NCBI GenBank assembly: GCA_041661605.1
Contig: JBAZUE010000003.1
Location: 13,934-77,933, forward strand
DNA length: 64,000 nt
From: Candidatus Omnitrophota bacterium
Lineage (GTDB): Bacteria; Omnitrophota; Gorgyraeia; Gygaellales; Profunditerraquicolaceae
Direction: 5' to 3'
Below are positions 44,058-62,830 of this stretch, in pieces (positions within the stretch are counted from its first letter, which is position 1; every line of letters begins with the position of its first letter). A program made the translations under genes and the position numbers. The notes beneath the pieces are model-generated. The model was not told the origin of the DNA and searched no databases. It saw nothing but the letters and a program-made list of their open reading frames with translations.

Positions 44058-44084
44058 CTTTTTCCTCCAGAATATTTTTAAGCA

Positions 44085-45578: not shown

Positions 45579-46581
45579 TTGTTTTCTTCTTCATCAACCT
45601 TTCCAATAGATAAAGCTCAGGGCTTAAATCCAGCTTATACAGATTATTATTGAATCTGCCTTCGGGGCTTCTCTGGCTATCGCTAAAATAAAGCACCTGG
45701 CGTTTATTATCGTAAAATGCCTCCATGGCCTCTTTGTTTAGCTCCACCAGGTTGACGGCCTTTGCCTGCGGCCTGGATTCAATCACCGCGACATGCTTAT
45801 TAGTCAAAACTATCAAATGATAGCTGTCTGAATGCCAGAATACCTTGATTATTTTTTCCTGAGGATAATCCAAATACACGAAAGAATCCAAATAGACGGA
45901 TGAATCCGAATATTCATAATCAGGCCGGTTATCAAAGAAAATCACGCTGATTTGATGCGGGCCAAAAATAAACATTTTGCTCTTGTCCATAGAAACCTCC
46001 CAGCCATTAATCTGGGATAATTTCTCCGGTAAACTTGCGATATCGTCAAAATTACTTCCATCCAGGTTTGACCTGTAAACAGTTTTATTATCTTGGTCCA
46101 AATAATAAATCGCTCCTTTTTCAATATCTACGCGGAAAGAAGAAAACCCCCCTTGGTTTAACTGCTGTAAGTCAGGCTTTAAAGGAAAGAGGATAACCTT
46201 GTCAATGCGGCTGACCTTGCCTGCCTCTACGTCTACCTCGGATTTCCAGGGATAATATTTCGCTAATCTTAAAGTAATTTTATAAACACCGGGCAGAAGC
46301 TCTTGTATACTTGCCGGGCTTTTCTCGGGGATAAGCTTTCCGTTAAGGTATATACTTGCTCCTTCGGGCTGGGTCTTTATATAAATCAAACCTGCCTTAA
46401 CAAATCTTAAAGTATGCGCATTGAATTTGTAACCTAGAGCAAATGACAGGATAAAAGGAAGCCCGCCGAAAAATAAAAGCAGGCTCAGATAAAACAAAAG
46501 ACTCCTTGCTCTTTGAAAAGCGGAATCCGTAAAAGAACAGACCCCTTTAGTTGTACAATTCTTCCTTAGCCAGCCAGACAT
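45571..46581 (-). CDS. Membrane-anchored PEGA-domain protein
   Basis: 336-aa ORF with an N-terminal TM helix, the literal PEGA motif (TQPEGASIYLNGK) and a beta-rich C-terminal region. It overlaps the GT2 gene by 8 nt. Confidence 0.55.
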   Translation of the reverse strand: MSGWLRKNCTTKGVCSFTDSAFQRARSLLFYLSLLLFFGGLPFILSFALGYKFNAHTLRFVKAGLIYIKTQPEGASIYLNGKLIPEKSPASIQELLPGVYKITLRLAKYYPWKSEVDVEAGKVSRIDKVILFPLKPDLQQLNQGGFSSFRVDIEKGAIYYLDQDNKTVYRSNLDGSNFDDIASLPEKLSQINGWEVSMDKSKMFIFGPHQISVIFFDNRPDYEYSDSSVYLDSFVYLDYPQEKIIKVFWHSDSYHLIVLTNKHVAVIESRPQAKAVNLVELNKEAMEAFYDNKRQVLYFSDSQRSPEGRFNNNLYKLDLSPELYLLERLMKKKTNE

Positions 46582-46838
46582 TTCAACAGTTCCTTCTCTA
46601 ACCCCAATAAAAATTTCTTTTGTTTTAAGCCAAACACATACCCGCCGATCTCCCTGTCACTTCTTATTACGCGGTGACAGGGAATAATTAACGGATAGGG
46701 GTTGCGCTTTAAGGCCTGGCCTACTGCCCTGCAGGCTCCCGGCGAACCTGCTTTTTGCGCTACCCATTTATAGCTGCGCACCTGGCCAAAAGGAATACTT
46801 AAAACCGCTCTATAAACCCTGATTGCGAACTTTGTCAT
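46566..46838 (-). CDS. MGMT-family protein (methylated-DNA-protein-cysteine methyltransferase active-site/DNA-binding domain only)
   Basis: 90-aa ORF with the active-site motif IPCHRV and the helix-turn-wing pattern. Confidence 0.8.
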   Translation of the reverse strand: MTKFAIRVYRAVLSIPFGQVRSYKWVAQKAGSPGACRAVGQALKRNPYPLIIPCHRVIRSDREIGGYVFGLKQKKFLLGLEKELLKCLAG

Positions 46839-48076
46839 TTTCCGATCAACTCTTTCCGGCGCAACAATAAATGGTAGCTCACGGCAAACCTATGCGCCTC
46901 ATCACGCACCCGGCGGATTAGATTTAAAGCCGGGGTATCTTTGAGAAAAGTTAGCGGCCGCCTTTTCTGACTACTATAGATACGTTCCTCTTTTTTAGCA
47001 ATACTGGCCAAAGGAAGATTAAGGCCTAATTCTTTGAGCTGGCCGGCAGCAGCTAAAAGATGCCCTTTCCCTCCGTCAATAAGCAGCAGGTCGGGGAAAG
47101 CCCCTTTTTCTTTAATCAGGCGGCTGTAACGCCGGCGCACCACTTCAGCCAGCATTCTGTAATCATCGATCCCCTTAAAATCCCTGATGCGAAAACGGCG
47201 GTAATTATTTTTATCCGGATTGCCTAAATAAAAACTTACCATTGAACCTACCGCCTGTTTACCGGAAATATTAGAGATATCGAACCCTTCAATCCTCTCC
47301 GGAAGCCTATTTAAACCTAATTTGTTCTTTAAATCTTCCAATTCATTCTTACGGTTAACCCCGCTTAAACCTGCGGACAGCTCAGCTAAAGTAGAAATCT
47401 GATCCCGAGCTATGGCTGCAGACTCAAAATCCCTGGACCGGGATTTATTGCGCATTACTTCGCTTAACCTATTAATCAATAGGTCGGCCTTGCCCTCCAA
47501 AATCATGATAATATTACCAATCTCCCTGCCATATTCTTTGCGGCTGATCTTACCGGTACAGGGTTCAGGGCAAAGCTTAATCCTGCCGTATACGCAACTC
47601 TGGCTGAGCAGCCTGCGGCATGAACGATACGCAAAACTGCGCCGGATAATTTTCAAGGCATTCTTTAAAAGCTTGGCATTAGTGTAAGGCCCAAGGTAGC
47701 GGCCAGCCGGATCATTTTTTTTGCGCGTGATACTTATTGACGGAAATTCTTCTCCGGAAATTTTAACAAAAGGAAAGCTCTTATCATCCCGCAGAGAGAT
47801 ATTGTATTTGGGTTTAAGTTTATGGATAAGACTGGCCTCAAGCAATAAAGCCATAGATTCATTAGGAGACAACCTGAACTCAACATCAACTACCCTGCTC
47901 ATCAAAGCAAAAGTTTTATTATCCAGGTTCCCGGCTAAATAATTAGGCAGCCTTTTTTTTAATGACTTGGCTTTACCCACATAAAGCACTTTTCCCCGGT
48001 TATCCCGCATCAGATACACACCCGGAGAATCCGGTACAGATAAAATTTTCTCTTTTAATTTCCGCGCTTGCTCCAT
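46835..48076 (-). CDS. uvrC: Excinuclease ABC subunit C, short form lacking the C-terminal (HhH)2 domain
   Basis: 413-aa ORF with GIY-YIG (GVYLMRDNRGKVLYVGKAKSLKKR), a UVR motif (FESAAIARDQI) and an RNase-H-like endonuclease domain (IEGFDISNISG, RDEAHRFA). It ends immediately after that domain. Confidence 0.8.
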   Translation of the reverse strand: MEQARKLKEKILSVPDSPGVYLMRDNRGKVLYVGKAKSLKKRLPNYLAGNLDNKTFALMSRVVDVEFRLSPNESMALLLEASLIHKLKPKYNISLRDDKSFPFVKISGEEFPSISITRKKNDPAGRYLGPYTNAKLLKNALKIIRRSFAYRSCRRLLSQSCVYGRIKLCPEPCTGKISRKEYGREIGNIIMILEGKADLLINRLSEVMRNKSRSRDFESAAIARDQISTLAELSAGLSGVNRKNELEDLKNKLGLNRLPERIEGFDISNISGKQAVGSMVSFYLGNPDKNNYRRFRIRDFKGIDDYRMLAEVVRRRYSRLIKEKGAFPDLLLIDGGKGHLLAAAGQLKELGLNLPLASIAKKEERIYSSQKRRPLTFLKDTPALNLIRRVRDEAHRFAVSYHLLLRRKELIGK

Positions 48077-48081
48077 AGGTA

Positions 48082-49629
48082 TTAGTTGATGTTCTTAAGA
48101 ACCAGCCAATGTATAAGTTCCTTAAGTTCAGCTACGCCAAAAATAAAACAAAAAACAATATAAGATAAAATCCCGCAGAACAAAGCCCAGCCGAGATTTA
48201 ACGAGCGGTTAACCAGGAAACAAACAGCTGCCATGCAGGAAGAAGCAGCCAGAATACGCAGGAAAGAATAAAAAATTTTACGCCCTCCAAAACCGCTTAA
48301 ACGCTTGCTTAAGCTAAGAAACAAAAACAGAAAACTGATTATCCCTGAAATGGATGTAGCCAGGGCAAGGCCGCCTATTTTTAACGGAAACATCAAAATC
48401 GCATTAAATACAATATTCATAATCAAGGCTAAAAACGCTATTTTTGCGGGCGTAAACGTATCCTTAAGGGCAAAAAAACAAGATTGCAATATCTTTGTCC
48501 CCCCGTAAGCGCATAATCCGATACTATAAAAAAACAGGGCGTTGCTGGTCAAAAAACTTGAGTTAAAATCAAACCTGCCGCCGCCAAAAAGCGTAGACAC
48601 TAAAGGGTGAGCCAGGACCATAAAAATCGCGCTTGTCGGAAGCAGCGCAAAGAATATTACGCGTAAACCCCAGGAAAGCGTAACCTTAAGGTTATCCTGA
48701 TCCTGCTCTAATGCCTGCGTGGAAAAAGTAGGCAAAATAGCCTGCGACAGGGCGTTGCTGAAAATACCTATGGGGAATTGGATAAGCCGATAAGAAAAAT
48801 AAAGCACCGCTACCCCCCCATCGCCGACAATCGCTATTAATGAACCAAAGATAGAATCGACGAAATTATTCAACTGGTATATACTGGAACTGGCCAGCCG
48901 GGGCAGCATTAACCTTCTAACCTGTATCAGTCCGGGGTGTTTAAAGTTAAAAATACGCTTAAAATGGAACCCCTTCTTATATAAAACAGGTAGTTGCACT
49001 GCCAACTGCAACATCCCGCCCAATAAAACTCCTGTTGCCAGGCCTTTGGCGCCTTCTCCAAGAAGCAGGGCGCAAATAATTATAGCGATATTCAATAAGC
49101 AGGGCGCAAATGCCGAAACAGTGAAGTTCTTAAGAGAATTCAGTACAGCCATGGCATAGGCAGCCAGGCCGATAAGCAATATATAAGGGAAAATAATCCT
49201 GTTCAGCCTGATAGTTTCTTCCAGTTTATCCGGGAAGGCAATAAAGCCAGGGGCAATTAGGCGAACGATCAGGGGGGAAAAAATAATCCCCAGTATAGTT
49301 ATAACACTTAATGTAACCAGCAGAAGGTTAAGCAGGATATTGGCCAGCTCCCAGAAATCCTCTTTTGAGTGCTTAAGGTTATATTCGCTTAAGACCGGGA
49401 CAATCGCCGCGTTAGAAGCCCCCTCCCCGACAAAATCCCGGAAAAGGTTGGGTATGCGAAAGGCGATAACAAAGGCCTGCGCGTGCAGATAAACACCAAA
49501 GAGCCTGGCGATAACCACATCTCTTATAAAACCCAGGATGCGCGAGGCAAGGGTACCCAGGCTGATAACGGTTGCCGAACGCGCGACTTGCCGATTGTGA
49601 CTGCCTAAGGAATATTTGTTTGTTGACAT
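48082..49629 (-). CDS. murJ: Lipid II flippase MurJ
   Basis: 515-aa, 14-TM ORF with the MurJ/MviN N-terminal pattern GTLASRILGFIRDVVIARLFG. Confidence 0.9.
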   Translation of the reverse strand: MSTNKYSLGSHNRQVARSATVISLGTLASRILGFIRDVVIARLFGVYLHAQAFVIAFRIPNLFRDFVGEGASNAAIVPVLSEYNLKHSKEDFWELANILLNLLLVTLSVITILGIIFSPLIVRLIAPGFIAFPDKLEETIRLNRIIFPYILLIGLAAYAMAVLNSLKNFTVSAFAPCLLNIAIIICALLLGEGAKGLATGVLLGGMLQLAVQLPVLYKKGFHFKRIFNFKHPGLIQVRRLMLPRLASSSIYQLNNFVDSIFGSLIAIVGDGGVAVLYFSYRLIQFPIGIFSNALSQAILPTFSTQALEQDQDNLKVTLSWGLRVIFFALLPTSAIFMVLAHPLVSTLFGGGRFDFNSSFLTSNALFFYSIGLCAYGGTKILQSCFFALKDTFTPAKIAFLALIMNIVFNAILMFPLKIGGLALATSISGIISFLFLFLSLSKRLSGFGGRKIFYSFLRILAASSCMAAVCFLVNRSLNLGWALFCGILSYIVFCFIFGVAELKELIHWLVLKNIN

Positions 49630-49683
49630 GAATAATTAATTATGCTATTAATAGAAAAATAAAGTTAACTATAAGGAGAATAT

Positions 49684-49947
49684 ATGCCAAGACGTAGAAC
49701 ATCATTAAAAAGCAACCGTGTAAATAAAAGAAAACACACCCGCAACCTCAAAGTAAAGGTTCAGCTTAAGAAGGCAATAAAGAAATTTCAGGAGTTGCTT
49801 GCCAAAAAGGACACCGTTGAAGCAAAAACTTTCATTAGCAAGGTTTTTTCTCAGCTTGATAAAGCGGCGAAAAAAAATATCATCCATCCGGCAACGGCTA
49901 ACCGCAGGAAATCACGCCTAATGCGCCGTTTGAACAAACCCGCTTAA
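49684..49947 (+). CDS. rpsT: 30S ribosomal protein S20
   Basis: 87-aa basic ORF with the bS20 pattern (KSNRVNKRKHTRN..., IHPATANRRKSRL). AAGGAG precedes it. Confidence 0.9.
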   Translation: MPRRRTSLKSNRVNKRKHTRNLKVKVQLKKAIKKFQELLAKKDTVEAKTFISKVFSQLDKAAKKNIIHPATANRRKSRLMRRLNKPA

Positions 49948-50568
49948 ACCAACAACTAATTTTTCCAAGGCACAGGCAGGCTTTAGCCTGCCTGTTTTTA
50001 TCTCCACATCACAGCCAATAAGAAGTTTAAGCTTACGCCGAGCCTCTTGGCCCTGAATACCCTGTTTTTCCCAGGCGTACCGTAAACCTCCCAGGATACG
50101 TTCAGGGGCCTCCCCATTCTTCAAAAGTTGGTTTAAAATGCGAAGCGCCGAATCCGGCTTCCTTAACTCAATCTGCCGGCTTAAAGCAAAAGTATCCGGG
50201 TTAACTGTTTCCTTAAAACGCATGACCTTGGCAGTCCGGGATATACCCTTAATAAAACTATCCTGATAATCATAATGCTCCAGGATTAATACCAAAACCA
50301 ATTGTTTATCCGGATTTTTAACATAGCTCAAAAGAAAATCCCGGCATGCCTCATCCAGTGAGCCGGCGTCTTTAATTACGATAATCCTTTTGGCGCTTTT
50401 TAAGGGGATGGCCAGGAACCTTTCCTGGATAACTTTTAAAGCTGCTTCTTTAGCGTATAATGTATCGAAGTTAAAATCTTGAAGTTCTTTTGGTAGGAAT
50501 TCCTCTTTTATTTTCCTAAGCTGGTCTTCTCTTGCCTGCACATCCTGGCCGATAAGTAAATAAACCAT
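49918..50568 (-). CDS. holA: DNA polymerase III delta subunit HolA, short form
   Basis: HolA-like N-terminal pattern VYLLIGQD...IKEEF...FNFDTL...RIIVIKDA. I prefer the ATG at 50568, one nt after the lptE stop. The gene order lptE-holA is conserved in diderms. Confidence 0.6.
   Translation of the reverse strand: MVYLLIGQDVQAREDQLRKIKEEFLPKELQDFNFDTLYAKEAALKVIQERFLAIPLKSAKRIIVIKDAGSLDEACRDFLLSYVKNPDKQLVLVLILEHYDYQDSFIKGISRTAKVMRFKETVNPDTFALSRQIELRKPDSALRILNQLLKNGEAPERILGGLRYAWEKQGIQGQEARRKLKLLIGCDVEIKTGRLKPACALEKLVVGLSGFVQTAH
49972..50000 (+). terminator. Terminator hairpin after rpsT (embedded in the 3' end of the convergent holA)
   Basis: ACAGGCAGGC-TTTA-GCCTGCCTGT followed by TTTTTA. Confidence 0.5.
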
Positions 50569-50569
50569 A

Positions 50570-51184
50570 TCACCATTGTTCAACTGTGCGCTCGACAATC
50601 CGGCGAGCTAAATCGTCTACGGCGTTAGTCACGGCGGTATCTTCTGATACCGCAATAACATTCCCGGAAGCAAAATTCGTAAAATAAGAATAGTTTCCGT
50701 TAAAATTATTCTCTTCCCAAACCAGTTTATTTTCTTTTTGATCCCAGAGGCTTAAATTCACATATATATTAATGCGGTATTCAGTAACATTCTCACCATT
50801 CGAATCATAGGTTACAGGGTCTTTGCGATACTCCATCAATTCTCCTTTAAGCACCAAATCCGCCTGAGCCTCTTTTGCCGGTTTAAGATTTCCGTCAAAA
50901 AGGTAACGGTTAATTACCTTTTTAGTGATATCAGTCTCCAGCATCGGCCGGTAAATCCGGTACTTATTGGCAGAATATCCTTCCTGGGTTACATCCACTT
51001 TATTTAAAAATGGCGTTACATAAATTGTGCTGAATTTCCCGGAAAGCATAGAACGGGTAGTATAGCCGCAACCGGAAAGGGCAGTAGCTAGCAGGCAGCA
51101 TATAGTAGACAGGAAAAGAAAAAAGCTGATTTTATGGCTTTGCCTATCGGAAGGCAAACCATTGTTCTCTAACTTATTTTTCAT
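50570..51184 (-). CDS. lptE: LPS-assembly lipoprotein LptE-like
   Basis: Track ORF trimmed to the ATG at 51184 (MKNKLENN...). It has the lipobox LSGCGY and sits upstream of holA, as lptE does in other diderms. Confidence 0.5.
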   Translation of the reverse strand: MKNKLENNGLPSDRQSHKISFFLFLSTICCLLATALSGCGYTTRSMLSGKFSTIYVTPFLNKVDVTQEGYSANKYRIYRPMLETDITKKVINRYLFDGNLKPAKEAQADLVLKGELMEYRKDPVTYDSNGENVTEYRINIYVNLSLWDQKENKLVWEENNFNGNYSYFTNFASGNVIAVSEDTAVTNAVDDLARRIVERTVEQW

Positions 51185-52121
51185 TTTTGCGCTCCAATAT
51201 CTGCAGCCTGGCCACAGCCTGAGCGGCCCATGGGGTATCTGCATAATTATTGACTATATCGTTATAATAAATCCTGGCTGAATCAAATACCTTTTGCTTT
51301 TCATAGAAGCTGGCAATGTTATAGTTTGCCTCCGCCTCCTTCTCCCTGATACCGCTGATATTCTTTTCGGCATCAAGCGAAAGCACGGCATCAGGATGTT
51401 CTTTTACAAACTCTTCAAATCTTTCTTTTGCCTCCTGGGCTGCGCCCTGGTCATAAGCCGACCCCTTAGATAAACTGGCGCGGCAAGAGGCAATCTGGAA
51501 CTTCGCCGCAGATGCCCATTCGCTATCCGGGTAGCGGGAGACCACCTTGTTAAAAGCCTCTTCAGCTTCGTAATAACGCAACAGCCCCTTTAAAACCAAC
51601 CCCAATTTATACTGCGCCTGGGCAGCTAATGGGCCATAGGTAGAATTTTCTACTATTTTGCCGAATATCTCAATCGCCGGATTCTCTACGGGCAAGGTTA
51701 CTCCCAGGGCCTTTCGTTTTTCTCCGGACATAAACTTCTCGGCAATTTTATACTCCCGCTCAATAACCTCCTGGATACGCTCGCTAAAAGGATACTTATC
51801 AATCACCATCTGGTAGGCCTGGTAAGCTTCATATAATTTCCCCTCGGCCTCCTCCGTTAACCCAAGATAATACTGGCTTTCCGCAGCCTCCGCAGATTTA
51901 GGGTAAGCCTTAAGCAGCTTACGGAATTCTCGCCTGGCTTCTTCATATTTACTGATATCAAAGAAGGATTTAGCATAAGCGAACTGCTCCGCAGGATTAT
52001 CCTTTGGCATATTCTTGGGATTAACCCACTTGCCGCTTTTAGGAGTCCAGATCCAATAGGAATATGCCGGCTGGATAGACAGAAAAGAAATGAATAATAA
52101 ACTTAAGATTATACGCCGCAT
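51174..52121 (-). CDS. bamD: TPR-repeat outer-membrane assembly factor BamD-like
   Basis: 315-aa ORF with a signal peptide and repeated TPR-like helices that have the BamD/YfiO-type pattern (AQYKLG, YPDSEWA, YADTPWA). Confidence 0.55.
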   Translation of the reverse strand: MRRIILSLLFISFLSIQPAYSYWIWTPKSGKWVNPKNMPKDNPAEQFAYAKSFFDISKYEEARREFRKLLKAYPKSAEAAESQYYLGLTEEAEGKLYEAYQAYQMVIDKYPFSERIQEVIEREYKIAEKFMSGEKRKALGVTLPVENPAIEIFGKIVENSTYGPLAAQAQYKLGLVLKGLLRYYEAEEAFNKVVSRYPDSEWASAAKFQIASCRASLSKGSAYDQGAAQEAKERFEEFVKEHPDAVLSLDAEKNISGIREKEAEANYNIASFYEKQKVFDSARIYYNDIVNNYADTPWAAQAVARLQILERKNEK

Positions 52122-52154
52122 AATGTCTTAAATTATCATAGCCCGGGGCTTTTG

Positions 52155-52841
52155 TCAAAGATAAAAATACGCTCCCGGGATTTTGATTACCGCGGCGTTT
52201 ATATTTAAAAGCAGGGTAATCAGCATGGCAGTGGTTGTGCTAAAAACCCCTCCCAGGAAAGGGCAAAAAGAACCGCATAAAACCAGACTAAATCCGCATA
52301 AAGTAATCAGGGTAGCCAGCGGGACAATAAGGATATTGGCCAAAACAGTTATTGGCGAAATAATGCGAAAGTTATAAGCGATGATCCCCATTGTTCCGAT
52401 CCAGGCGCAAAGAGAAACCAGGCAGCCTTCGCAAATAAATCTCAACACCTTCACCTTAAAATTTCCCAGGCGTAAAAACGATTTTATCTTTGGATAAAGA
52501 CAGGCTATCGCTAAAACACTGACAAAGGATAACTGGAAGCCAATATCAAAAAGCTGCCGGGGGTTCAGCCCCAGTATGAATAAAGCCGCGCAAGCCAAAC
52601 AGTTATATATATCCGCCTCCCTTTTTAAAATACGAGCCAGCAGAAAAACTATCCCCATAACCGTAGCGCGGATAACCGGATTGCTTGCGCCTGTGATTAA
52701 ACAATAGATAAGCAAACAGATTACTGTCAGGATAATCCGCACTTTAAGCCGGATACGCATAATCTTCAACAGGAGATTAACGATAAAAGCAACTATCCCT
52801 ACGTTAAATCCGCTGACTACCAGGATATGGGTCTTGGCGGG
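52155..52841 (-). pseudogene. comEC: ComEC/Rec2 competence-channel gene, C-terminal fragment truncated at its 5' side by the inserted element
   Basis: The frame stays open upstream of the track start as PAKTHILVVSGFNVGIVAFIVNLLL, with no start codon, until a TGA at 52842-52844. The conserved ComEC blocks HxLxxSGxxVG, GASNPVIRATVMG and GFQLSFVSV are present. The whole N-terminal part of ComEC is missing. Confidence 0.65.
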
Positions 52842-54460
52842 TCAAAATGGGATAAAATATCCGGGCCTGATCCGGAAAGGGCGGGCTGGAAGGCGGCAGA
52901 AATATCTTTTGGGAGATGGATAAGAATATCAATGATTCCGTTTACGTTTACGGTAATCATCGTGTTAAACAAATGCAGAATCCTCTTTTTGGTTTCATAA
53001 GTGAACTTGCCTATTCCCTCTTTGAGTTTTTTGACGTAATCAATCGCGCTGCTTATTTCTGACTGCTTGTTGTCCTGCTGTAATAATTCTCCGATTTCCT
53101 GTTTTGTTTTCTCAAGGACTTCCTTGCTTTTGGTAATGCCTTCAACCTGCTGCTTCAACTGCTCAAGGCTGATGATGTTGTGCCGGTAGGCCTCAAGGAT
53201 TCTCTGCTCTTCTTTTATCAAACCCTGCTGCTGCAGGTCTATTCTTTCGATATCCTGTTTTAAAGTTCCCTCGCTTTTTGTTTTTATTTCTTTTTCCTGC
53301 CGGACCGCTTTTTCTATCAGCCCAGGGTTCTCCAAAATTTCCTCTATCTTCTGCCAGACGGCCGATTCCAGTTTCTGGGTCTGGACGTATTTGAGCCGGC
53401 AGTTAACGAGTTTGTTATATTTATTCTTCGCAAAATGCGTGCACCGGTAATAAAGTTTGAAATAGGGCCCATAGCTTTTGCCGTCCCTGATCTGGAACTG
53501 CTTGTCGGCCGTGCCGGCGATGGTATTGCCGCAGTCGCCGCATTTCACCATGCCCTGGAGCAGATAGGGATATTTGGCGTTTCTTTCCGAATAATTCTTT
53601 CTGGCCTCCAGCAGCTCCTGGCTTCTTTCAAAGATTTCCTCGCTGACAATCTGAGGCACCTTTACTTCTATCCATTCTTCGCGGGGCTTTAACGTTCCGT
53701 TCTTACCGTGCCGGTTGGCGTACCACCGGCCGGTGTAAATCGGATCACGCAAAACGTCATGAACCACGTCTTCCCTCATCAGACTGCCTTCTTTGGCGCG
53801 ATAATCCAGTTTTCTCAGCGCCCTGGTCGTTTTGATGAGAGAGGAATCCGGCTGCCGGTAAACCTCGTAAATCTTCCTGACGGCCTCGGCCTCCTTCTCG
53901 TTGATTTCCAGCTTTTTTGTTTCCTTAATATAGTTATAACCGAATTTTGCCGGCGAAGAGCCCGAGTAATATCCTTCTCTCGCTCTTCTCATCTTGCCGA
54001 TTTTCGAGCGTTCAAGAAAGGTGTTTCTTTCAAGCTCGGCTATGCTGCCGAACAGGGAAAGAATGAACTTGCCCAGATAATTGGTCGTGTCAAAAGGCTC
54101 GGTAATCGACCTGATGTTGACGCCCATGCCTTCAAGCTCGTAGACCACGTTGAGCAAATCCTTGTTGCTCCGGAAAAACCGGTCTACTTTATAAACCAGA
54201 ATCAGGTTGATCCTGCCCTGCTTAGCGTCATCCATCAGCCTCTGAAACCGGGGCCTCTCGTAGCTGGTCCCGGAATAGCCGCCGTCCACGTACTCGTCAA
54301 AAATCTCGTAGCCGTTGTCCGCGGCGTGCTTTCTCAAAAGCTCAATCTGGGCCGCCAAGGAAAAGTTCTCCTTCTGCTCCTCGGTTGAGACGCGGGCGTA
54401 CAAAGCCGCTTTGACTATTTTTGCCGTTTCTTTTCCGTTTATTTCTATCTTGCCGTTCAC
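52817..54460 (-). CDS. Large serine recombinase (integrase)
   Basis: Resolvase catalytic domain (AALYARVSTEEQ, VYKVDRFFRS), recombinase domain, zinc ribbon (CGDCGN...YYRCTH) and coiled coil. I prefer the GTG at 54460, preceded by GGAAGG, which overlaps the stop of the HTH gene by 1 nt. The track's 613-aa version adds 66 low-complexity codons. Confidence 0.9.
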   Translation of the reverse strand: MNGKIEINGKETAKIVKAALYARVSTEEQKENFSLAAQIELLRKHAADNGYEIFDEYVDGGYSGTSYERPRFQRLMDDAKQGRINLILVYKVDRFFRSNKDLLNVVYELEGMGVNIRSITEPFDTTNYLGKFILSLFGSIAELERNTFLERSKIGKMRRAREGYYSGSSPAKFGYNYIKETKKLEINEKEAEAVRKIYEVYRQPDSSLIKTTRALRKLDYRAKEGSLMREDVVHDVLRDPIYTGRWYANRHGKNGTLKPREEWIEVKVPQIVSEEIFERSQELLEARKNYSERNAKYPYLLQGMVKCGDCGNTIAGTADKQFQIRDGKSYGPYFKLYYRCTHFAKNKYNKLVNCRLKYVQTQKLESAVWQKIEEILENPGLIEKAVRQEKEIKTKSEGTLKQDIERIDLQQQGLIKEEQRILEAYRHNIISLEQLKQQVEGITKSKEVLEKTKQEIGELLQQDNKQSEISSAIDYVKKLKEGIGKFTYETKKRILHLFNTMITVNVNGIIDILIHLPKDISAAFQPALSGSGPDILSHFDPPRPISW

Positions 54461-54648
54461 TAGGGCCTTCCTGTCAGTTTTTCCAGTTTCTTGATGTCCG
54501 CTTCGGTATAAATCCGGTAATTGCTCATCTTGTCTCTTTTGGTTTTGGGGATCTTGCCGGCTTTCTCCCAGTTGTAAAGAGTCCGCCTCGTTACGCCGAG
54601 AATCCCCGCGACTTCCTGGCTCAAGAATCTCTTTTTGGTTGTTTTCAT
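54460..54648 (-). CDS. Excisionase/MerR-type HTH DNA-binding protein
   Basis: 62-aa ORF. FLSQEVAGILGVTRRTLYNWEKAGKIP is a typical excisionase-family HTH. Confidence 0.75.
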   Translation of the reverse strand: MKTTKKRFLSQEVAGILGVTRRTLYNWEKAGKIPKTKRDKMSNYRIYTEADIKKLEKLTGRP

Positions 54649-54673
54649 AGGTTTTCATATGCTACCGCTCCTT

Positions 54674-54853
54674 TTAGCGGCTGTCAAGAAATTTCTTCTG
54701 GATCCTCTCCGCCTCCTCCGGGCTCTTGTCGGAAATCTCGATGGCCAGAAGAACAAACCTCAAAAGCTGGGTGGACAAAACAGTATCTTCCCTGAATGCT
54801 ATTTTGAGGTTCGGCTTTAACTCTAATTTTTCTCTTCTCAATATTTTTCCCAT
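54674..54853 (-). CDS. 59-codon ORF, unknown function (below the track cutoff)
   Basis: Hand translation gives MGKILRREKLELKPNLKIAFREDTVLSTQLLRFVLLAIEISDKSPEEAERIQKKFLDSR. It starts 5 nt after the J-domain gene stop. Confidence 0.3.
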   Translation of the reverse strand: MGKILRREKLELKPNLKIAFREDTVLSTQLLRFVLLAIEISDKSPEEAERIQKKFLDSR

Positions 54854-54858
54854 AGAAA

Positions 54859-56442
54859 TTAATATTGCCTAAAAATTATTTTCGGCGTGAATTCTAATGT
54901 TATCAGTTCCATATATCCAGAAAGAAAGCTTTTTCTGAGATATTTTCGCTGGATGACGAAATTGCTTCTTCCCGTCTTCTTCCGGAGTTCTTTTTCCAAG
55001 GGGACAAAGAAATAAACGTCGGTGGCGTAAGTCGAATCGGAAATAGGAGAAGAGCTGACCAAGCCGTATCTGAATTGCTTGACGATTACCTCGGTCGTTT
55101 TGCCTTGCTTTCTGAAAAGGACGACGTATTTGTGGACGTAATCTCCCAACAACGAAGAATGATCGGTGGCATAGGTGATGATTATTTTTTCTTCCCTGCT
55201 TTCAAACCGGATTTTTTCTTTCTGTCTTTCCAGGGCTTTAAGGGTCGCCTCCCAGACTTTTTCAAATTCCACGTCATAAAATACGTCGAGAGCCTTGAAT
55301 CTGCCGGCATTTTCAATTGATGAAATTAGGGACTTCAAAATCAGCCAGGGATCGGCTGAATTATCCACTCTTGAAAGTGTAAAATCCGGACCAGAGCTGG
55401 CTTCTATTTTGTCGCCCTTCAACCTTCCCGCAAAAGAACCGGATAGAAATTCCGAAAAACCAACCGTCCGGCCGATAAGGTCGGCAAAAACATCGTCAAA
55501 GCTCTCTATTTTAAAAACAATCTCTCCGTTTTTCCTGATTTCGCCTTTTATCTTTCCGATAATCCCGGCGATAAAGATTCTCCCTTCAAAATAATTTTCC
55601 CGGGGAAAGATACAAAGATAAGCATCATTGTAAGGAGAAATCTGTCCAAACCAATTGCCCTGGAGGTCTTCCAATTTGGGAATCTCAGAGATGAACGCCA
55701 CGCTTTTTTCCAGCCAGCCGGTTTTATTAACCGCCGCAGAGTTATTGCAGGAATAAATCAAGCAGGAAATTAAGAAAAGAGCGCTTAAGACGGTTACCAA
55801 AACCCAGACCCGGAAAGATTTAAAGAAAGGTTTCAAATAAACAGAAAATAATAAAGCAAGAAAATCTGATTCCATGGAAATATCAACGGCGACGGTTTCG
55901 TTCCCGCCGTTGGTATCAACCATAACCAGCGCCGAATCACTAAAGCCGGCCGGAAAAGAAACGGTGTCAATCGTGATTTCAATCTCCTGGTAATCTGGGG
56001 TGCTGATTACCGTTTCCGAAAATTGAACCCACGGTTTGTCCGCGGTGATGGTGCCGATTAACGCGCCCCTGCCGTCGTTGAAAACCGTGAGAATGTCAGA
56101 GGCGGAAACACCGGGTTTGAGATTTGTGAATTGCAGGTAATTCTTGTCCACCCTGACAACGGGAGAGACTCCGGCGCCGCCCTGGTTGGCCGCCTGACCG
56201 GCTTTCAGGTTTTTCAGCTGCTCGTCGTATTGCTTCCTTTTTTCAGGTACGGACAAGACATCATAAGCTTCCTGGATTCTTTTGAATTCCTCCTCAGCCA
56301 GATCCTTTAAGTCGGGCGCCTCAGGGGAAACCCTGTCCGGATGAAACTGAAGGACCAGCTTCCGGTAAGTCTTCTTTATCTCCTCCCCGGTGGCGTTCTC
56401 GCTTATTCGCAAAACGTCGTAATAACTCGCGAAATCCTTCAT
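54859..56442 (-). CDS. Membrane-anchored J-domain protein (J domain, beta-rich region, one TM helix, unknown C-terminal domain)
   Basis: 527-aa ORF with a canonical J domain carrying HPD (YYDVLRI...YRKLVLQFHPDR...AYDVLS...RKQYD). A hydrophobic helix (VWVLVTVLSALFLISCLIY) lies near residue 225. The roughly 290 aa after it have no motif I recognise. Confidence 0.8.
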   Translation of the reverse strand: MKDFASYYDVLRISENATGEEIKKTYRKLVLQFHPDRVSPEAPDLKDLAEEEFKRIQEAYDVLSVPEKRKQYDEQLKNLKAGQAANQGGAGVSPVVRVDKNYLQFTNLKPGVSASDILTVFNDGRGALIGTITADKPWVQFSETVISTPDYQEIEITIDTVSFPAGFSDSALVMVDTNGGNETVAVDISMESDFLALLFSVYLKPFFKSFRVWVLVTVLSALFLISCLIYSCNNSAAVNKTGWLEKSVAFISEIPKLEDLQGNWFGQISPYNDAYLCIFPRENYFEGRIFIAGIIGKIKGEIRKNGEIVFKIESFDDVFADLIGRTVGFSEFLSGSFAGRLKGDKIEASSGPDFTLSRVDNSADPWLILKSLISSIENAGRFKALDVFYDVEFEKVWEATLKALERQKEKIRFESREEKIIITYATDHSSLLGDYVHKYVVLFRKQGKTTEVIVKQFRYGLVSSSPISDSTYATDVYFFVPLEKELRKKTGRSNFVIQRKYLRKSFLSGYMELITLEFTPKIIFRQY

Positions 56443-57083
56443 CGTTTGTGCTCCAGGAATTGAACCGGCAATTTTTTGGCTATCATATCCATTCCCCTTC
56501 TCAATTCGTTGTTTTCCACTTTAAGGTTTAAACCTTTTCTCGAAACGAGCTCTGAGAGGAAGTTTTGATCGGCGTCCGAGGTTGAGATGGCCAGAATTTC
56601 TATCTTGTCTTTCTTCATTTCTGCGGCGACTTCCAAGGCGGAATTAGGGTCGCTGGGGCAGCCGTCGGTGGCGACCACCACCACGCGACAGCCTTTCTTT
56701 CTTAAGAGTCTTCCCGACGCCATATTAAGGGCATCGGTGAGATTCGTGGAGCCCGTGATGGAAATCTTTTCCACGCCGCTGGCGATCACCGAGACGTCTC
56801 TTGTCGGCTCGCAGATTAAATGCGCCTTGTCGCCGAAATCAATCAAACCAACGCGATAACCTTTCCTCACGGCGGTCTTGGCGAAATCCCCGACTCCCTG
56901 TTTTGCCTGAATAATCTTTTCCCCTTCCATGCTTCCCGAGCAGTCAACCAAAAGAAAAACCACGGCAGGGTCTTTCTGGAAATAAGTGGTCTTAGGTTTC
57001 GAATCAAAAGAGGTTTCTTTGCCGTCAGAGGATTTGACAACCAGCTTGCCGTCAGAACCAAGAGCTAAAAGTTTCTTTTCCAT
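56439..57083 (-). CDS. von Willebrand factor type A (vWA) domain protein, cytoplasmic
   Basis: 214-aa ORF with the MIDAS motif VDCSGSM, later GSTNLTDAL and VVVATDG, and no signal peptide. It overlaps the J-domain gene by 4 nt. Confidence 0.8.
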   Translation of the reverse strand: MEKKLLALGSDGKLVVKSSDGKETSFDSKPKTTYFQKDPAVVFLLVDCSGSMEGEKIIQAKQGVGDFAKTAVRKGYRVGLIDFGDKAHLICEPTRDVSVIASGVEKISITGSTNLTDALNMASGRLLRKKGCRVVVVATDGCPSDPNSALEVAAEMKKDKIEILAISTSDADQNFLSELVSRKGLNLKVENNELRRGMDMIAKKLPVQFLEHKR

Positions 57084-57104
57084 CGTTCACGCTCCTTTCT
57101 TTTG

Positions 57105-57139
57105 GGTGGTGTTTGGGGCGGTGTTTCCGAAACACCACC
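57105..57139 (-). promoter_or_regulatory. Structured intercistronic element with alternative hairpins / triple 7-mer
   Basis: Minus strand reads GGTGGTGTTT-CGG-AAACACC-GCCCC-AAACACCACC. The 5' arm can pair with either the proximal 7-mer or the distal 10-mer. The element lies 22 nt upstream of the vWA start codon. Confidence 0.4.
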
Positions 57140-57202
57140 TCTTCTTTTTTGAAACTCCTTAATTCCGTTAAAGTTAGAAACGATTTCTCCGAATCCCTGA
57201 CG

Positions 57203-57598
57203 CTAACTTTCCTTTTTTATACCCAATACTTTCTGTTTTATAAAACTTAAAATAAATTTAATTATATTTTTTACTTCTTCAGGTAAGAAAGAATAACCAA
57301 GTAAGAGCAGACAGACGACAACGAGCAACGGGACGAACGACACCAGATTCCTGACAAAGCCAATGGCAAGCAACACAAGAAACAGCCAGAACAAAACTTT
57401 CAAAAGGATTGCCCAGAACGGAATCTCTCCGGCTATGTCGGAAAGCTCGAAAGAACCGCACTTGCCGCAAGCCAGTGCCGCTTTGGAATTGACGCTCCGG
57501 CATTTGGAGCAGATTCTGGCCTCGAAGGTCTTGGCGCAGTACTGGCAGTAAAGCGGCTTTCCCGGATTGATTCTTTGGCAGTAAGGGCAGTACCTCAT
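57203..57598 (-). CDS. Double-zinc-ribbon protein with two C-terminal TM helices
   Basis: 131-aa ORF with CPYC...CQYC...CSKC...CGKC followed by two hydrophobic helices. Confidence 0.6.
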   Translation of the reverse strand: MRYCPYCQRINPGKPLYCQYCAKTFEARICSKCRSVNSKAALACGKCGSFELSDIAGEIPFWAILLKVLFWLFLVLLAIGFVRNLVSFVPLLVVVCLLLLGYSFLPEEVKNIIKFILSFIKQKVLGIKKES

Positions 57599-58416
57599 AT
57601 TAAAGAGAACACTCCTTCCTTGTTGGGCCTGTGCCAGATTTGAGAAAAGATTTTTTCCGGTGAAACGTCTTTCTCAACGGTCAGCCAGCAGAAACTCTTG
57701 TCGGTAATCTTCTCGATTGTCCTTAAAAGGGTTTTTAACCTGACCAAGGTCTTGCAAACAATTAAAAGCCGGAAATGCTGATTTTGAAAACCGAACTGTC
57801 TTTGAAAATCCCCGCTTAACCCGTAATCCAGGTAATCCTCCATTTTCTTTTTGATTCTTTTCAGGTTTTCGGTCGAGCGGTCTATTTCCAGAAGGAAACT
57901 ATAAGTTTTATCCGGACATCCAAGGCGGAAATAAGCGTCGGGGTAAATTCTCGCTTCCTCCTCCGAAAACAGGGCCGGCTTGTATCTCCAGATTTCGGTT
58001 TTCATCCGGCAGTTTTGGTGGGAACAGATCTCCAGGGAATACCGGAAATTATTTATTGATAAAAAATGAGAGAGAAAGGAATCCCGGGTCTTCACGGCTT
58101 TGAATCTCTTTTTCGCGATTTCCGAGGAGTCGAGTCCGGTTTTCAAGGAGATGATTTCTGCCGCCCTCGGCCCAGGCAGATAAAGAATCCGCTTTTTGAA
58201 AGCGTCTATGAAAAGCCGGCGGGAAAGGAAGCCGTTATCAAAGAGTTTCCTTAATCTGTCATTAGTTCGCTTCAGGCAGTTAAAGCCGCAGAGATTTTTG
58301 ATCTGCTCTCCGCACAAGAAACGGTAGTCAAAGACCTTTTTGAGAATTTCCGAGTCCCTGGGCTGTAAAACTAAAGGGTTTCCGCTTCTTTGAAGAATTT
58401 TTCTTCTACCAGCCAT
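57595..58416 (-). CDS. Replication-relaxation (Replic_Relax) family protein
   Basis: 273-aa ORF with an N-terminal wHTH-like region (LKKVFDYRFLCGEQI...RLRKLFDNGFLSRR). It also has the C-terminal block YPDAYFRL...FLLEIDRSTE typical of this family. Confidence 0.6.
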   Translation of the reverse strand: MAGRRKILQRSGNPLVLQPRDSEILKKVFDYRFLCGEQIKNLCGFNCLKRTNDRLRKLFDNGFLSRRLFIDAFKKRILYLPGPRAAEIISLKTGLDSSEIAKKRFKAVKTRDSFLSHFLSINNFRYSLEICSHQNCRMKTEIWRYKPALFSEEEARIYPDAYFRLGCPDKTYSFLLEIDRSTENLKRIKKKMEDYLDYGLSGDFQRQFGFQNQHFRLLIVCKTLVRLKTLLRTIEKITDKSFCWLTVEKDVSPEKIFSQIWHRPNKEGVFSLI

Positions 58417-59857
58417 CGGCTTCCTCCGTCTTTGATTCGGTCCGACCGCTTTCTTTTGTCATTCCCATTTTTTCGCGCCTCTCGCGAATCTCTTTTTCGA
58501 TTTCCTCAAACGTCCGGGTGTAATAGGAAAAAGAAAGGTTTCTTAATTCCTCGATTGTTCTGGAATCGACCTCAACTTTTTCCGGCAGAGGCAGCTTGAC
58601 CAGGCGGTGCGGTTCTCCCCGGATCTTGAAATACGCTTCCCCCACTCCCAGCTCGGTCAGCTTTTTGGTCAGAGATTCTTTGACGCTCGGATTCAACTCC
58701 TGGGAGAGGACAAAAGCGTCGCTGTGATTCACCCTGAAAACCAGGATCGCCTTGGTGTTCCCCAGAATCGCCTCAAGGAGTTTTCTTTCTATCTGAAACA
58801 AATTCTGGTGACTCATCCGCAGGAAAAGTTTATATTTACGCGACTCCGACAAAATCGTCTCCATCGAAGAAACCTCCTGGGTGGCCAGGGACTGGAACTC
58901 GTCGGCGAAAATGTAGAAAGGTTTTCTTTGCTGGTAGGGAATGTTGGACCGCGACAAAGCCGCAAGCTGGAGTTTGCACAAAAAGAGGCTGGCCAGAAGA
59001 AAGCTGTTGCTTTTCATTTTGCCTTTCGACAAATTCACGACTATCCATTTCCGCTTGTCTATAGCGTCCCGGAAGTTAAAGCTGCTCTTTGACTGGCCCA
59101 TCAAATAACGAATGGAGGTATCGCCCAAGAATTCTCCGATTTTATTGAGCGAGGGATCCCGGTAAATAGTTTTCTGCGGCTCGGTCAGCTTGTTATAGCG
59201 GTAAATCCAGTTTTTCGCCTCCTCGTTCTGGATATTGGCGGCCAGCGAATTCCTGAAACGATTATTGAGTAAAAGATGTGGTGCCTCGGCCAAAGTAAGA
59301 TTGTTTTCGGCAAGGATCACCAGAGCGTTTCTCATCAGCTCGTTGGTTCGCGGACCCCAGAATTCGGCCCAGCGGCTGCGGAAAACTTCGACTAACTCCA
59401 AGACCGTCGAATAGACGGATTCATTTTTCTGGACTTCCAAAGGGTTGAAGGAAACCGTCCTTTCCGGATTGAAGGGCTCGATGAGAATCAGTTTCCGGGC
59501 CATGATTTTTCTCTCGCTTTCGCTCTTGTCCTTGAAAATATAGGCCATGAATTTGATCACCTGCTCGGTCAGATCGCCGTGGACGTCAAAAAGGGCAAAA
59601 CCTTCATTTGATAATATATGCTGTCTAATCATTCTTTCGAGCATAGTTGTTTTTCCGGTACCGGTCGCCCCAATAATGTAAATATGGCTTTCCTTTTCCG
59701 AAGGAGAAATGTGAATTTCCTCGGTTTTGTCCCGATCAAAAAGGCTCTGGCTCTGGCCGATATAAATTGAATTTGAAGACGGCTTTTTCTGTCTGGGAAA
59801 AAGAAGGTCTGTTAGAAATTCAAATAACTTAATTAGCAGTTTTTCCAGAAATCTCAT
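58406..59857 (-). CDS. FtsK/HerA/TraD-superfamily P-loop ATPase (type IV coupling-protein-like)
   Basis: 483-aa ORF with Walker A IIGATGTGKTT, FDVHGDL and Walker B YIFADEFQSL. It also has the C-terminal block SRKYKLFLRMSHQNLFQI...ILGNTKAILVFRV. Confidence 0.6.
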   Translation of the reverse strand: MRFLEKLLIKLFEFLTDLLFPRQKKPSSNSIYIGQSQSLFDRDKTEEIHISPSEKESHIYIIGATGTGKTTMLERMIRQHILSNEGFALFDVHGDLTEQVIKFMAYIFKDKSESERKIMARKLILIEPFNPERTVSFNPLEVQKNESVYSTVLELVEVFRSRWAEFWGPRTNELMRNALVILAENNLTLAEAPHLLLNNRFRNSLAANIQNEEAKNWIYRYNKLTEPQKTIYRDPSLNKIGEFLGDTSIRYLMGQSKSSFNFRDAIDKRKWIVVNLSKGKMKSNSFLLASLFLCKLQLAALSRSNIPYQQRKPFYIFADEFQSLATQEVSSMETILSESRKYKLFLRMSHQNLFQIERKLLEAILGNTKAILVFRVNHSDAFVLSQELNPSVKESLTKKLTELGVGEAYFKIRGEPHRLVKLPLPEKVEVDSRTIEELRNLSFSYYTRTFEEIEKEIRERREKMGMTKESGRTESKTEEADGW

Positions 59858-60372
59858 TTTTTCTCCTCCGGGGAATTACCGCTTTCCTTTCTAAGAAAAC
59901 TACTGAAATCCTTGAATTCCGGCATGTTTTTTAGCAAGGAGGAGGCAGATTCGGAAAAACTGAATACTCTGAAATTTTTGTTCAAAGACCGCAGGGTCAT
60001 GCTAACTGGTAGAATCATTACGTCCCCGGTGAAAAAAACGTAAAAAACGTCCGAATCCTTTCTGAGCGAACTATGGATGCCCTCAACCAGCATCGGATCG
60101 TCTATTTTGGTTTCTCCGCTTGAGCTTGGAGGGCAATGAATGAGCCTTATGTTTTGCGAAATCAAAGCGCGCTGGACGGATAAATCAAGTTCCAGCGTTT
60201 TGAAATCTCCACAGGCGAAACCCTCAGCGATGCCGCCGTACTGCTTTGTCAAATCCAGAAGCTTGTAAAACGCCTTGTTAACCTCGTACCCAAACCGCCT
60301 GGCCGAATATACTAAATTCGGCAAATCGATGAAAATAGCCACTTTTCTTGCCCTCTTTTCTACTTTTTCCAT
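59854..60372 (-). CDS. NYN/LabA-like (PIN-fold) domain protein
   Basis: The pattern VAIFIDLPNL...KIDDPML...FFTGDVMILP matches the acidic-residue spacing of NYN domains. I prefer the ATG at 60372, preceded by GAGGAGG at 6 nt. The track start at 60429 lacks an SD. Confidence 0.5.
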   Translation of the reverse strand: MEKVEKRARKVAIFIDLPNLVYSARRFGYEVNKAFYKLLDLTKQYGGIAEGFACGDFKTLELDLSVQRALISQNIRLIHCPPSSSGETKIDDPMLVEGIHSSLRKDSDVFYVFFTGDVMILPVSMTLRSLNKNFRVFSFSESASSLLKNMPEFKDFSSFLRKESGNSPEEKK

Positions 60373-60429
60373 CTGCCGCCTCCTCGTTTTTTGCTTTAGG
60401 AATTTTTGTATTTCCCATATAAGGGGCAA

Positions 60430-60528
60430 GAAATGTTTCTGAAATATCCTTGAAATGTTGCAAAATGCCGTTTTTGACTAAGAATTATTTAAATAAGTGC
60501 TTGAAATGCAGTGGGTTAAGTAGAAATT
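60430..60528. repeat. Phased GAAAT repeats in the operon-upstream region
   Basis: GAAAT occurs at 60430, 60441 and 60452, an 11-nt period, with a degenerate AAAAT at 60462. Further copies lie at 60503 and 60523. TTGAAATG is exact at 60450-60457 and 60501-60508. Confidence 0.5.
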
Positions 60529-60543
60529 AGGGGTGAGGAAGGT

Positions 60544-62730: not shown

Positions 62731-62756
62731 TTATGATAAAGTCCTAAAAAATTAAT

Positions 62757-62790
62757 TAAAATAAAAGAGGGAGAAAAATTCTCCCTCTTT
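62757..62790 (-). terminator. Rho-independent terminator (bidirectional-looking)
   Basis: Minus strand reads AAGAGGGAGAA-TTTT-TCTCCCTCTT followed by TTATTTTAATT. It lies between the 131-aa gene and the 728-aa gene. Confidence 0.6.
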
Positions 62791-62830
62791 TGACAAAATT
62801 ACCTCAACCTTTTTACTTTTCATCGGGTTC

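Follow-up and report, generated by a model that had tools for sequence, protein, structure and literature searches.

We found that in a stretch of DNA from a Candidatus Omnitrophota bacterium (contig JBAZUE010000003.1; 'the window' denotes all 64,000 nucleotides analysed), the competence gene comEC is interrupted by a mobile element that carries a gene for a large serine recombinase (LSR). The original prediction, made from the letters of the window, had held that comEC is split by an inserted LSR element; both halves of the gene have now been found, and joining them restores the open reading frame (ORF). Comparison with related loci and with an unintegrated sister element indicates that the LSR gene itself is split in the same event. 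We consider it fairly probable that the recombinase made this double split, that the split is reversible, and that the arrangement mainly serves the element, with comEC being restored as a by-product of excision.

comEC is cut at codon 248

The comEC fragment of the window (52155..52829, minus strand) comprises codons 248-471 and the stop, contains the Competence domain (PF03772) and forms the B' side of attL. Its frame on the minus strand (52155-52847) reads F*PAKTHILVVSGFNVG...PGAYFYL*, with a TGA at 52842-52844, and extends into element DNA as far as 52841. After this TGA, the first ATG, GTG or TTG is a TTG at 52769, which leaves 24 open codons without a start (52770-52841), exactly as had been described from the sequence. 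The 228-aa frame matches positions 23-244 of the 270 in PF03772 (E = 3e-49). Homology to intact orthologues, determined by tblastn and blastn, starts exactly at 52829, at the histidine of HILVVSG, which agrees with the earlier statement that the fragment begins at the HxLxxSG block with its N-terminal part gone. What is missing amounts to 247 of 471 codons, leaving 224. The junction had been placed at 52826-52845, and the shared core described below (52827-52829) falls at the lower edge of that range. It was reproduced at 100% identity in an independent Logan assembly of run SRR18595301 (L001), a 100% copy of window positions 43434-61517 that ends inside the element, and is present in the JGI and NCBI records as well. 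Base composition gave no sharp marker of the junction. We observed no second comEC piece or N-terminal part within the 64-kb window, where all other matches had E > 0.1, and no match there to attR or B-arm patterns.

Homologues of the fragment are ComEC proteins of Omnitrophota. In the two closest relatives with long flanks, L038 (90% nucleotide identity) and L035 (88%), comEC is intact at 471 codons and lies in the order leuS, response regulator (opposite strand), comEA, comEC, bamD-like gene, lptE and holA. These 471-aa orthologues end in ...PGAYFYL, as the window fragment does, and do not contain a beta-lactamase-like domain; the common end shows that the 3' end of the fragment is native and that the 247 missing codons are lost from its 5' end. 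We collected 45 intact comEC loci, 11 from JGI metagenomes and 34 from GTDB genomes, and in all 45 the alignment to the window starts or stops at 52829-52830, which places the breakpoint. To the right of 52829, no relative's locus aligns, apart from matches to the LSR gene that come from other elements. Downstream of comEC, by contrast with this edge, the host flank (46835..52121) is syntenic with the DNA that follows intact comEC in relatives, at 80-90% nucleotide identity. Among 42 distinct intact loci, the insertion site falls within the most conserved 30-60 nt of the surrounding +/-150 nt, a value to be read with the reservation that the search patterns which picked out the loci lie immediately 5' of it. 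As judged from these alignments, the insertion sits between comEC codons 247 and 248, in what appears to be the most conserved DNA stretch of the gene.

The 5' half of comEC and the rebuilt gene

We located attR, the other end of the element, by searching proteins with the N-terminal half (247 aa) of ComEC from L038. The search revealed a 253-aa protein (P0121) that contains only DUF4131 (PF13567), is 88% identical to L038 and ends in ...KSGTVHVLPAQ*. It is encoded on L068 (JGI 3300037810, an 18,263-bp contig), L069 (Logan SRR18595301), L070 and L071, so that the 5' part of comEC, which the original prediction had expected to the right of the element, was recovered with attR on other contigs, outside the window. 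On L068, a partial leuS, the response regulator, comEA and comEC codons 1-247 are followed by foreign genes: a 132-aa ORF with a ribbon-helix-helix (RHH) domain, an HNH protein, a HerA/TrwB-like ATPase, a type II methyltransferase and restriction enzyme, and a KAP NTPase.

Joining the 5' half from L068 to the 3' half from the window gave a 471-aa ORF that aligned to L038 with no gap at 88.7% identity and that contains both regions of a ComEC protein, the DUF4131 region from P0121 and the Competence domain from the window. The two halves diverge equally from L038, with identities of 88.3% (5') and 89.3% (3') and ratios of nonsynonymous to synonymous substitution (dN/dS) of 0.20 and 0.17. These values suggest that both halves are intact and consistent with a single lineage. 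We paired attL with attR because L069 shares run SRR18595301 with L001, because the halves are equally diverged, and because the rebuilt integrase gene is in frame. There is no overlap between the element DNA on L068 and that in the window, and the element is therefore at least 11.2 + 16.6 kb long, or ~28 kb, if both pieces are its ends.

A metagenome scan with the N-terminal half of the closest ComEC, for which the patterns were too specific, retrieved intact comEC loci only and no attR. A scan of GTDB genomes (38 loci) gave ~35 Omnitrophota loci that were intact across the site, bar one contig that stops there. This contig, from a metagenome-assembled genome (L056; JAZDLL010000063.1), terminates exactly 5 nt past the crossover (...GTGCATAT). 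Similarly, L070 and L071, which are independent short attR contigs, both break ~60 nt into the element. Such assembly breaks at the site suggest a mixture of occupied, empty or variant states in those communities.

Attachment sites and the crossover

We aligned attL (window, L004 and L005), attR (L068), attB (45 loci) and attP (L076, the contig of an unintegrated sister element). In this alignment, attB of L038 reads ATTAAATCCGGTACCGTG CAT ATCCTGGTAGTCAGCGG, attL of the window, as the reverse complement, TTTTGACCCGCCAAGACC CAT ATCCTGGTAGTCAGCGG, attR of L068 ATTAAATCCGGTACCGTG CAT GTCCTACCAGCTCAGTAA, and attP of L076 GACCCGCCAAGACC CAT ATCCTGGCGGGGC. The rebuilt attB contains ATTAAATCCGGTACCGTGCATATCCTGGTAGTCAGCGG and the rebuilt attP contains GACCCGCCAAGACCCATGTCCTACCAGCTCAG. 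CAT, the codon for His248 of comEC (52827..52829, minus strand), is the only core fully shared by attL, attR, attB and attP; TCCT is also common after one intervening base. On the element side of attL, the P arm (..TTTTATCCCATTTTGACCCGCCAAGACC; 52830..52875, minus strand) also encodes the recombinase linker ..DILSHFDPPRP. It is conserved in attL of L004, L005 and L008, and attP of L076 carries an identical arm.

Dyad symmetry of attP is maximal at CA: 13/20 arm positions are symmetric in L076, and 10/20 when attP is rebuilt by joining the P arm of the window to the P' arm of L068. Because the symmetry peaks there in both, the crossover dinucleotide is most likely the CA at 52828-52829. We also considered a 9-bp inverted repeat in attB (TTAAATCCG...CGGATTTAA) as the symmetry axis and rejected it, as it is centred 3 nt off the shared core.

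attP within the recombinase gene

The LSR gene of the window (52817..54658, minus strand) encodes, in its integrated, truncated form, 613 aa. Its product contains the features of the LSR family, namely an N-terminal resolvase catalytic domain, a recombinase domain, a zinc ribbon and a coiled coil, with Pfam matches to Resolvase (PF00239, 2.9e-37, residues 84-230), Recombinase (PF07508, 1.2e-14) and Zn_ribbon_recom (PF13408, 2e-10). The nucleophile, Ser91 in YARVSTEEQ, is invariant in an alignment of 23 sequences. Matches in PDB included the TP901-1 catalytic domain, the phiC31 and A118 integrases (C-terminal domain 4kis) and gamma-delta resolvase. The gene call of NCBI is shorter (547 aa; MFA6130479.1), with a start further downstream, as is that of JGI. 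Residues 1 to ~80 (54410-54658) are of low complexity, rich in Q, E and R, and predicted to be disordered (pLDDT < 50 in a model of the related protein P0133). Given this disordered N terminus and the shorter calls, the true start of the recombinase is uncertain.

The recombinase ends in ...DPPRPISW with a TAG at 52817-52819, and its last three codons and stop are read from comEC DNA in another frame, 12 nt in, which bears out the earlier claim that this end derives from the comEC stretch. The LSR ORF extends beyond the crossover at each attL that we examined (window, L004 and L005-L008) and stops 12-34 nt into comEC, in a frame different from that of comEC. At the other end of the element, the 132-aa ORF that follows attR on L068 begins with an ATG made up of the core AT and the first base of P'. 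This ORF has a 20-nt overlap with the end of the 5' comEC fragment, is codirectional with comEA-comEC and, in the rebuilt attP, is in frame with the LSR ORF. Joining LSR residues 1-610 to these 132 aa gives a rebuilt ORF of 742 codons.

The best match to this rebuilt ORF was P0133, a real, single protein of 742 aa with 87% identity over 100% of the query, whose domains are Resolvase, Recombinase, Zn_ribbon_recom and RHH. The 18.5-kb contig that encodes it, L076, has element genes on both sides and no comEC: genes for an NYN protein, a ThiF protein, an ATPase like type IV coupling proteins (T4CP), a Replic_Relax protein and a 132-aa protein lie upstream, and other genes lie downstream. At the nucleotide level, L076 is 89.5% identical to the window LSR gene and 84.6% identical to the RHH ORF of L068. 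This reconstruction shows in silico that attP lies within the LSR gene; integration would therefore cut two genes at once, the LSR gene as well as comEC.

Against RHH_1, the 132-aa ORF scored 35.5 bits, which exceeds the Pfam cutoff, and it has two beta-alpha-alpha repeats. The more distant LSRs P0212, P0216, P0219 and P0223 (28-37% identity) bear uninterrupted double RHH tails, and the fused architecture is therefore older than this clade. In the AlphaFold2 (AF2) model of P0133, long helices (427-562) follow the zinc ribbon, and the crossover residues 610/611 lie in a low-confidence linker (586-648) after the coiled coil and the last zinc-ribbon strands. The 613-aa form thus retains all catalytic and DNA-binding domains of an LSR, and only the double-RHH tail is detached. 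With a dN/dS of 0.32, compared to 0.17 for the core, the tail appears to be under purifying selection. A sequence search of PDB with the RHH ORF gave no meaningful match, and the AF2 model of the tail is of low confidence.

Recurrent insertion at the same site

To judge from their C termini, relatives of this recombinase occupy the same place. About 60 of 67 other LSR homologues stop within ~20 residues of the crossover, and their tails (SW, FW, F, CWRSAG..., FLWSAV...) are +1-frame readings of the comEC codons for HIL(V/A)VSG. In all five contexts that were inspected, two of which were chosen blindly, the LSR gene is followed by the Competence fragment, BamD, LptE and HolA. These data suggest that the LSR clade sampled is nearly always integrated at this comEC site. 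For two relatives on long contigs, only attL was seen, and the elements exceed 10 kb.

We also observed arrangements that resemble degenerate derivatives. L072 (10001-12754), which recurs in L073-L075 from different samples, contains comEA, a comEC 5' fragment (263 aa, same cut site) and a conserved RHH ORF without an LSR; a second comEC, complete at 524 aa, comes immediately after the RHH ORF and shares only 39% identity with the fragment. The locus may be a remnant that has become fixed, accompanied by a comEC that is a replacement or a paralogue. L002 (5024-5480) and L003 have no LSR either: ahead of their truncated comEC 3' half lie an RHH-like ORF, 40% identical to the tail of P0133, and ~140 nt with att-like motifs (GGCAAGACCC, GTCAAGA|CATATCC), in an arrangement unlike that of the window. 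Both sets of derivatives show that such insertions can become fixed.

Element genes and host flank

The genes to the right of the recombinase in the window are all on the minus strand. They encode a 527-aa DnaJ-domain protein with a possible Ig-like domain (54859-56442), a VWA protein (56439-57083), a double-zinc-ribbon protein (57203-57598), a Replic_Relax nicking/replication protein (57595-58416; PF13814, 2.8e-19; phrog_9381, 'replication initiation by nicking'), a TrwB/VirD4-like coupling ATPase (58406-59857; PF10412, 2.7e-16), an NYN protein (59854-60429), two ORFs of 728 aa (60544-62730) and 131 aa (62831-63226) that had no match in Pfam, PHROGs or PADLOC, and a RuvC-like resolvase (63361-63882; Pfam and PHROGs). 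The element genes from 59854 to 64000 run off the window, and the element's right end lies outside it. The region 60000-63000 is AT-rich (GC 0.32-0.39, compared to 0.42-0.47 in the host flank).

A backbone is shared with the sister elements L076 and L077, where the genes for the T4CP/TrwB-like ATPase, the Replic_Relax protein and a zinc-ribbon protein of 131-132 aa lie in this order upstream of the LSR. The window keeps the order, except that VWA and DnaJ genes intervene between the zinc-ribbon protein and the LSR. Cargo differs between elements. Here it consists of the DnaJ, VWA and zinc-ribbon trio, the NYN protein, the RuvC-like resolvase, the type II restriction-modification genes and the KAP NTPase, and the DnaJ and VWA genes are absent from L076 and L077. 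The trio forms a tight, partly overlapping cluster adjoining the recombinase gene (54859-57598). Its three proteins matched no PADLOC defence family and only PHROG families without known function; the cluster may be a cargo system.

None of the element proteins matched a phage structural, packaging or lysis family in PHROGs, and the element is therefore not a prophage. Its gene content indicates an integrative plasmid-like element or an element like integrative and conjugative or mobilizable elements (ICE/IME). A scan of IMG/VR gave no match to the RuvC-like protein and, for the LSR, only integrases of 33-35% identity, so the element is not catalogued as viral. In annotated phage and plasmid collections, LSR cores were only ~30% identical and none had an RHH tail.

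The host flank downstream of comEC contains, by Pfam matches, genes for a bamD-like TPR lipoprotein (51174-52121, minus strand), lptE (50570-51244, minus strand), holA (49918-50598, minus strand), rpsT (49684-49947, plus strand), murJ (48082-49629, minus strand) and uvrC (46835-48076, minus strand). Only 33 nt separate the comEC stop from bamD, and the element genes of the window and L068, comEA-comEC and bamD-lptE-holA are all codirectional. Transcription of bamD-lptE-holA, which are probably essential, may now rely on read-through from the recombinase gene. In addition, holA is short, at ~220-226 codons, both in the window and in its close relatives (216-234 aa in L002, L004, L005, L072 and L077), compared to a product of 339 aa on a more distant Omnitrophota contig (ERZ1426829). 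The lineage seems to have a DNA polymerase III delta subunit of reduced length.

Discussion

The reading that we consider fairly probable can be set out as a sequence of events. The element's LSR would have catalysed integration at the CA dinucleotide inside the shared CAT. comEC would thereby become a 5' half behind comEA and a promoterless 3' half, and the 742-codon LSR gene would become a 613-codon gene and a 132-codon double-RHH ORF at the opposite end of the element, with the ATG of the RHH ORF created by the crossover. Precise recombination of attL with attR would rebuild both comEC and the 742-codon integrase gene. As long as the element is integrated, the DNA-import channel would be broken and the cell should be non-transformable. 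The insertion would mainly protect the element from deletion mediated by transformation and offer it a conserved landing site, and comEC would be restored only as a by-product when the element excises for transfer or plasmid-like replication. Mobile elements are known to target competence genes, which stops transformation from deleting them (PMC4774983, PMC12378983), and the selfish gene content of this element fits such an anti-curing model. The feature expected of such an element, a site-specific insertion in the coding sequence of the competence machinery, is present and recurrent (five contexts and ~60 LSR tails).

Several points weigh against this explanation. The two attachment sites are on separate contigs, so their pairing is indirect, and the middle of the element is unseen. 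The P' arm of L068 is strongly unlike that of L076 over ~25 nt, which lowers the symmetry of the rebuilt attP to the 10/20 given above. There is no assembled excised form of this very element, and its activity is thus only presumed. The benefit to the element rather than the host is argued from the literature and not from these data, and the short ComEC of Omnitrophota, which does not contain the beta-lactamase-like domain, is only a putative transformation channel.

Could there be no real split, but a chimeric assembly or a native short ComEC that starts at HILVVSG? Many ComEC entries in the databases (~201-232 aa) do begin at or just past this position, and 19 to 47 of 120 ComEC homologues appear truncated at or after the site. 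However, 58 of the 120 span the site intact, as do the 45 loci, so that short proteins are not the norm in this family, which the original prediction had named as a possible objection to its own view. The short entries with inspected context adjoin an LSR or, in one lineage, an element remnant; the junction recurs at full identity in L001 and in the JGI and NCBI records; 24 codons without a start follow the junction; and the complementary 253-aa 5' fragment exists. Both versions, which we regard as highly improbable, are thus refuted as far as sequence data allow. A fixed insertion that no longer excises, with comEC dead and DNA uptake dispensable or otherwise provided, also seems quite unlikely to us. 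It would account for the degenerate derivatives elsewhere that have no LSR (L072 and L002/L003), for the presence of one attR junction in four assemblies (three are from other samples), a pattern that points to a stable genotype, and for the failure of any excised form to assemble. Yet the LSR ORF, both comEC halves and the RHH ORF are intact and under purifying selection, and the att arms are well preserved, with a P arm identical to that of the unintegrated sister.

A switch that serves the host, in which the element is a silent spacer that excises on a physiological cue to restore comEC, is rather unlikely, although much of what we observed could be fitted to it. An element interrupts a host ORF, and joining the halves in silico restores an intact 471-aa ComEC; both halves are intact with dN/dS of ~0.2; several lineages have the split together with an intact LSR gene; and the sister element is seen in the attP form, which means that the family can exist excised. 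In a specific and possible version of this switch, the double-RHH ORF, expressed from the comEA-comEC promoter, would be a candidate directionality factor that couples excision to competence induction. In favour of this version are the codirectional, 20-nt overlap with the comEC 5' half, the ATG supplied by the crossover, and the conservation of the RHH ORF even where the LSR is missing (L072). Of the excision-dependent restoration that had been proposed for this locus, the split and its repair in silico hold; neither the exact rebuilt ComEC nor the exact rebuilt integrase occurs in a collection of 15 billion proteins. Moreover, we saw no sign that the element excises in this population, a recent insertion would leave the halves just as intact, and the transfer, replication and defence genes are typical of a selfish element, with none of the reduced, domesticated structure of skin. 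Also counting against the switch, we know of no LSR directionality factor that is an RHH protein. On this evidence, excision could restore comEC, and regulated switching of competence is no more likely than a block on transformation that benefits the element itself.

We give little credence, for now, to a more elaborate idea in which the position of attP makes a built-in switch of direction and state. The LSR with its fused RHH tail would integrate when the element is circular; integration would free the 132-aa RHH protein, with its start codon from the crossover and its transcription from the host comEA-comEC operon; and competence induction would then yield a factor that licenses excision, restoring comEC, or represses the element. 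If true, the archaeal split integrases would gain their first bacterial counterpart among serine recombinases, and a mobile element would be coupled to host competence in a new way. The detaching RHH module raises, more generally, the hypothesis that serine-integrase directionality or element state could be encoded in the DNA rearrangement itself.

These results widen the host range of the conflict between mobile genetic elements and competence, which has been known from only a few pathogens in culture, by adding Omnitrophota, an uncultivated phylum whose cells are very small. They point to a whole integrase clade dedicated to one 40-50-bp site in comEC, and provide natural sets of attB, attP, attL and attR with their integrases that are useful for serine-integrase engineering. 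For annotation, they indicate that 200-250-aa 'ComEC' and 'DUF4131' proteins of Omnitrophota are halves of one gene.

Comparison with known systems

The closest precedents are the serine-recombinase elements Phi1207.3, Tn1207.3 and Phi10394.4, which are inserted in streptococcal comEC (celB) at a GA target (PMC4260502); these and Tn1207.1/mega are listed for comEC of S. pyogenes and S. pneumoniae (PMC12378983, PMC4774983). As here, a recombinase of the serine family inserts site-specifically at a dinucleotide in the comEC coding sequence and disrupts the channel gene. The streptococcal elements, however, are Firmicutes prophages or chimeric elements with a GA target, whereas the element described here is non-phage, plasmid- or ICE-like, resides in Omnitrophota and uses CA in the His248 codon. 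Neither a split of the recombinase gene nor an RHH tail has been reported for them. Among annotated Streptococcus phage integrases, on which this comparison is based, the best matches are only ~30% identical over the LSR core. The insertion in comEC is thus of a known kind, in a new phylum and by an unrelated integrase clade.

LSR elements that split genes also act as switches in the Listeria comK prophage (phi10403S/A118), in skin of B. subtilis (SpoIVCA, sigK) and in SPbeta (SprA/SprB, spsM). In each, as here, an LSR element lies in a host ORF that precise excision would restore; the pathway affected here is related to competence, as is that of comK, an insertion that is listed in PMC12378983. 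By contrast, regulated excision and a directionality factor have been demonstrated in those systems, and the present element, with its genes for transfer and replication, is not domesticated. Its backbone has other counterparts. Actinomycete integrative and conjugative elements (AICEs) and pSAM2-like integrative plasmids combine an integrase, a Rep protein and an FtsK-like transfer ATPase. The likeness to the element, which rests on Pfam domains, lies in a small set of backbone genes, for an integrase, a Replic_Relax-type protein and one or two ATPases like FtsK/TrwB/HerA, together with the existence of an unintegrated sister element; AICEs differ in their tyrosine integrase and their phylum.

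Integration in mycobacteriophages with integration-dependent immunity, as Broussard et al. 2013 are said to have described, uses an attP inside the repressor gene. There, too, an attP in a regulatory ORF gives different products in the integrated and free states, but the gene encodes a repressor, the integrase is a tyrosine recombinase and a degradation tag is removed, whereas here the gene encodes the serine integrase itself and a DNA-binding module is either fused or free. In the 'suicidal' tyrosine integrases of SSV1 type, which come from archaeal viruses and plasmids and are described as exclusive to archaea (PMC8371274), attP lies in the integrase gene. Integration partitions that gene between the ends of the element and excision rebuilds it, and the same feature is seen here in the rebuilt ORF and P0133. 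We rejected membership in the SSV1 subfamily, given that the enzyme is a serine recombinase and that the crossover at 610/611 comes after all LSR core domains. In the SSV1 type, the partition separates the catalytic part and is thought to be inactivating, whereas this bacterial serine recombinase loses only its double-RHH tail. In the literature that we searched, integrase genes partitioned by integration are described only for the archaeal SSV-type tyrosine integrases, and a search that linked large serine recombinases to RHH proteins returned nothing relevant. As far as we can tell, a serine integrase with attP inside its gene and a detachable double-RHH tail is a new variant.

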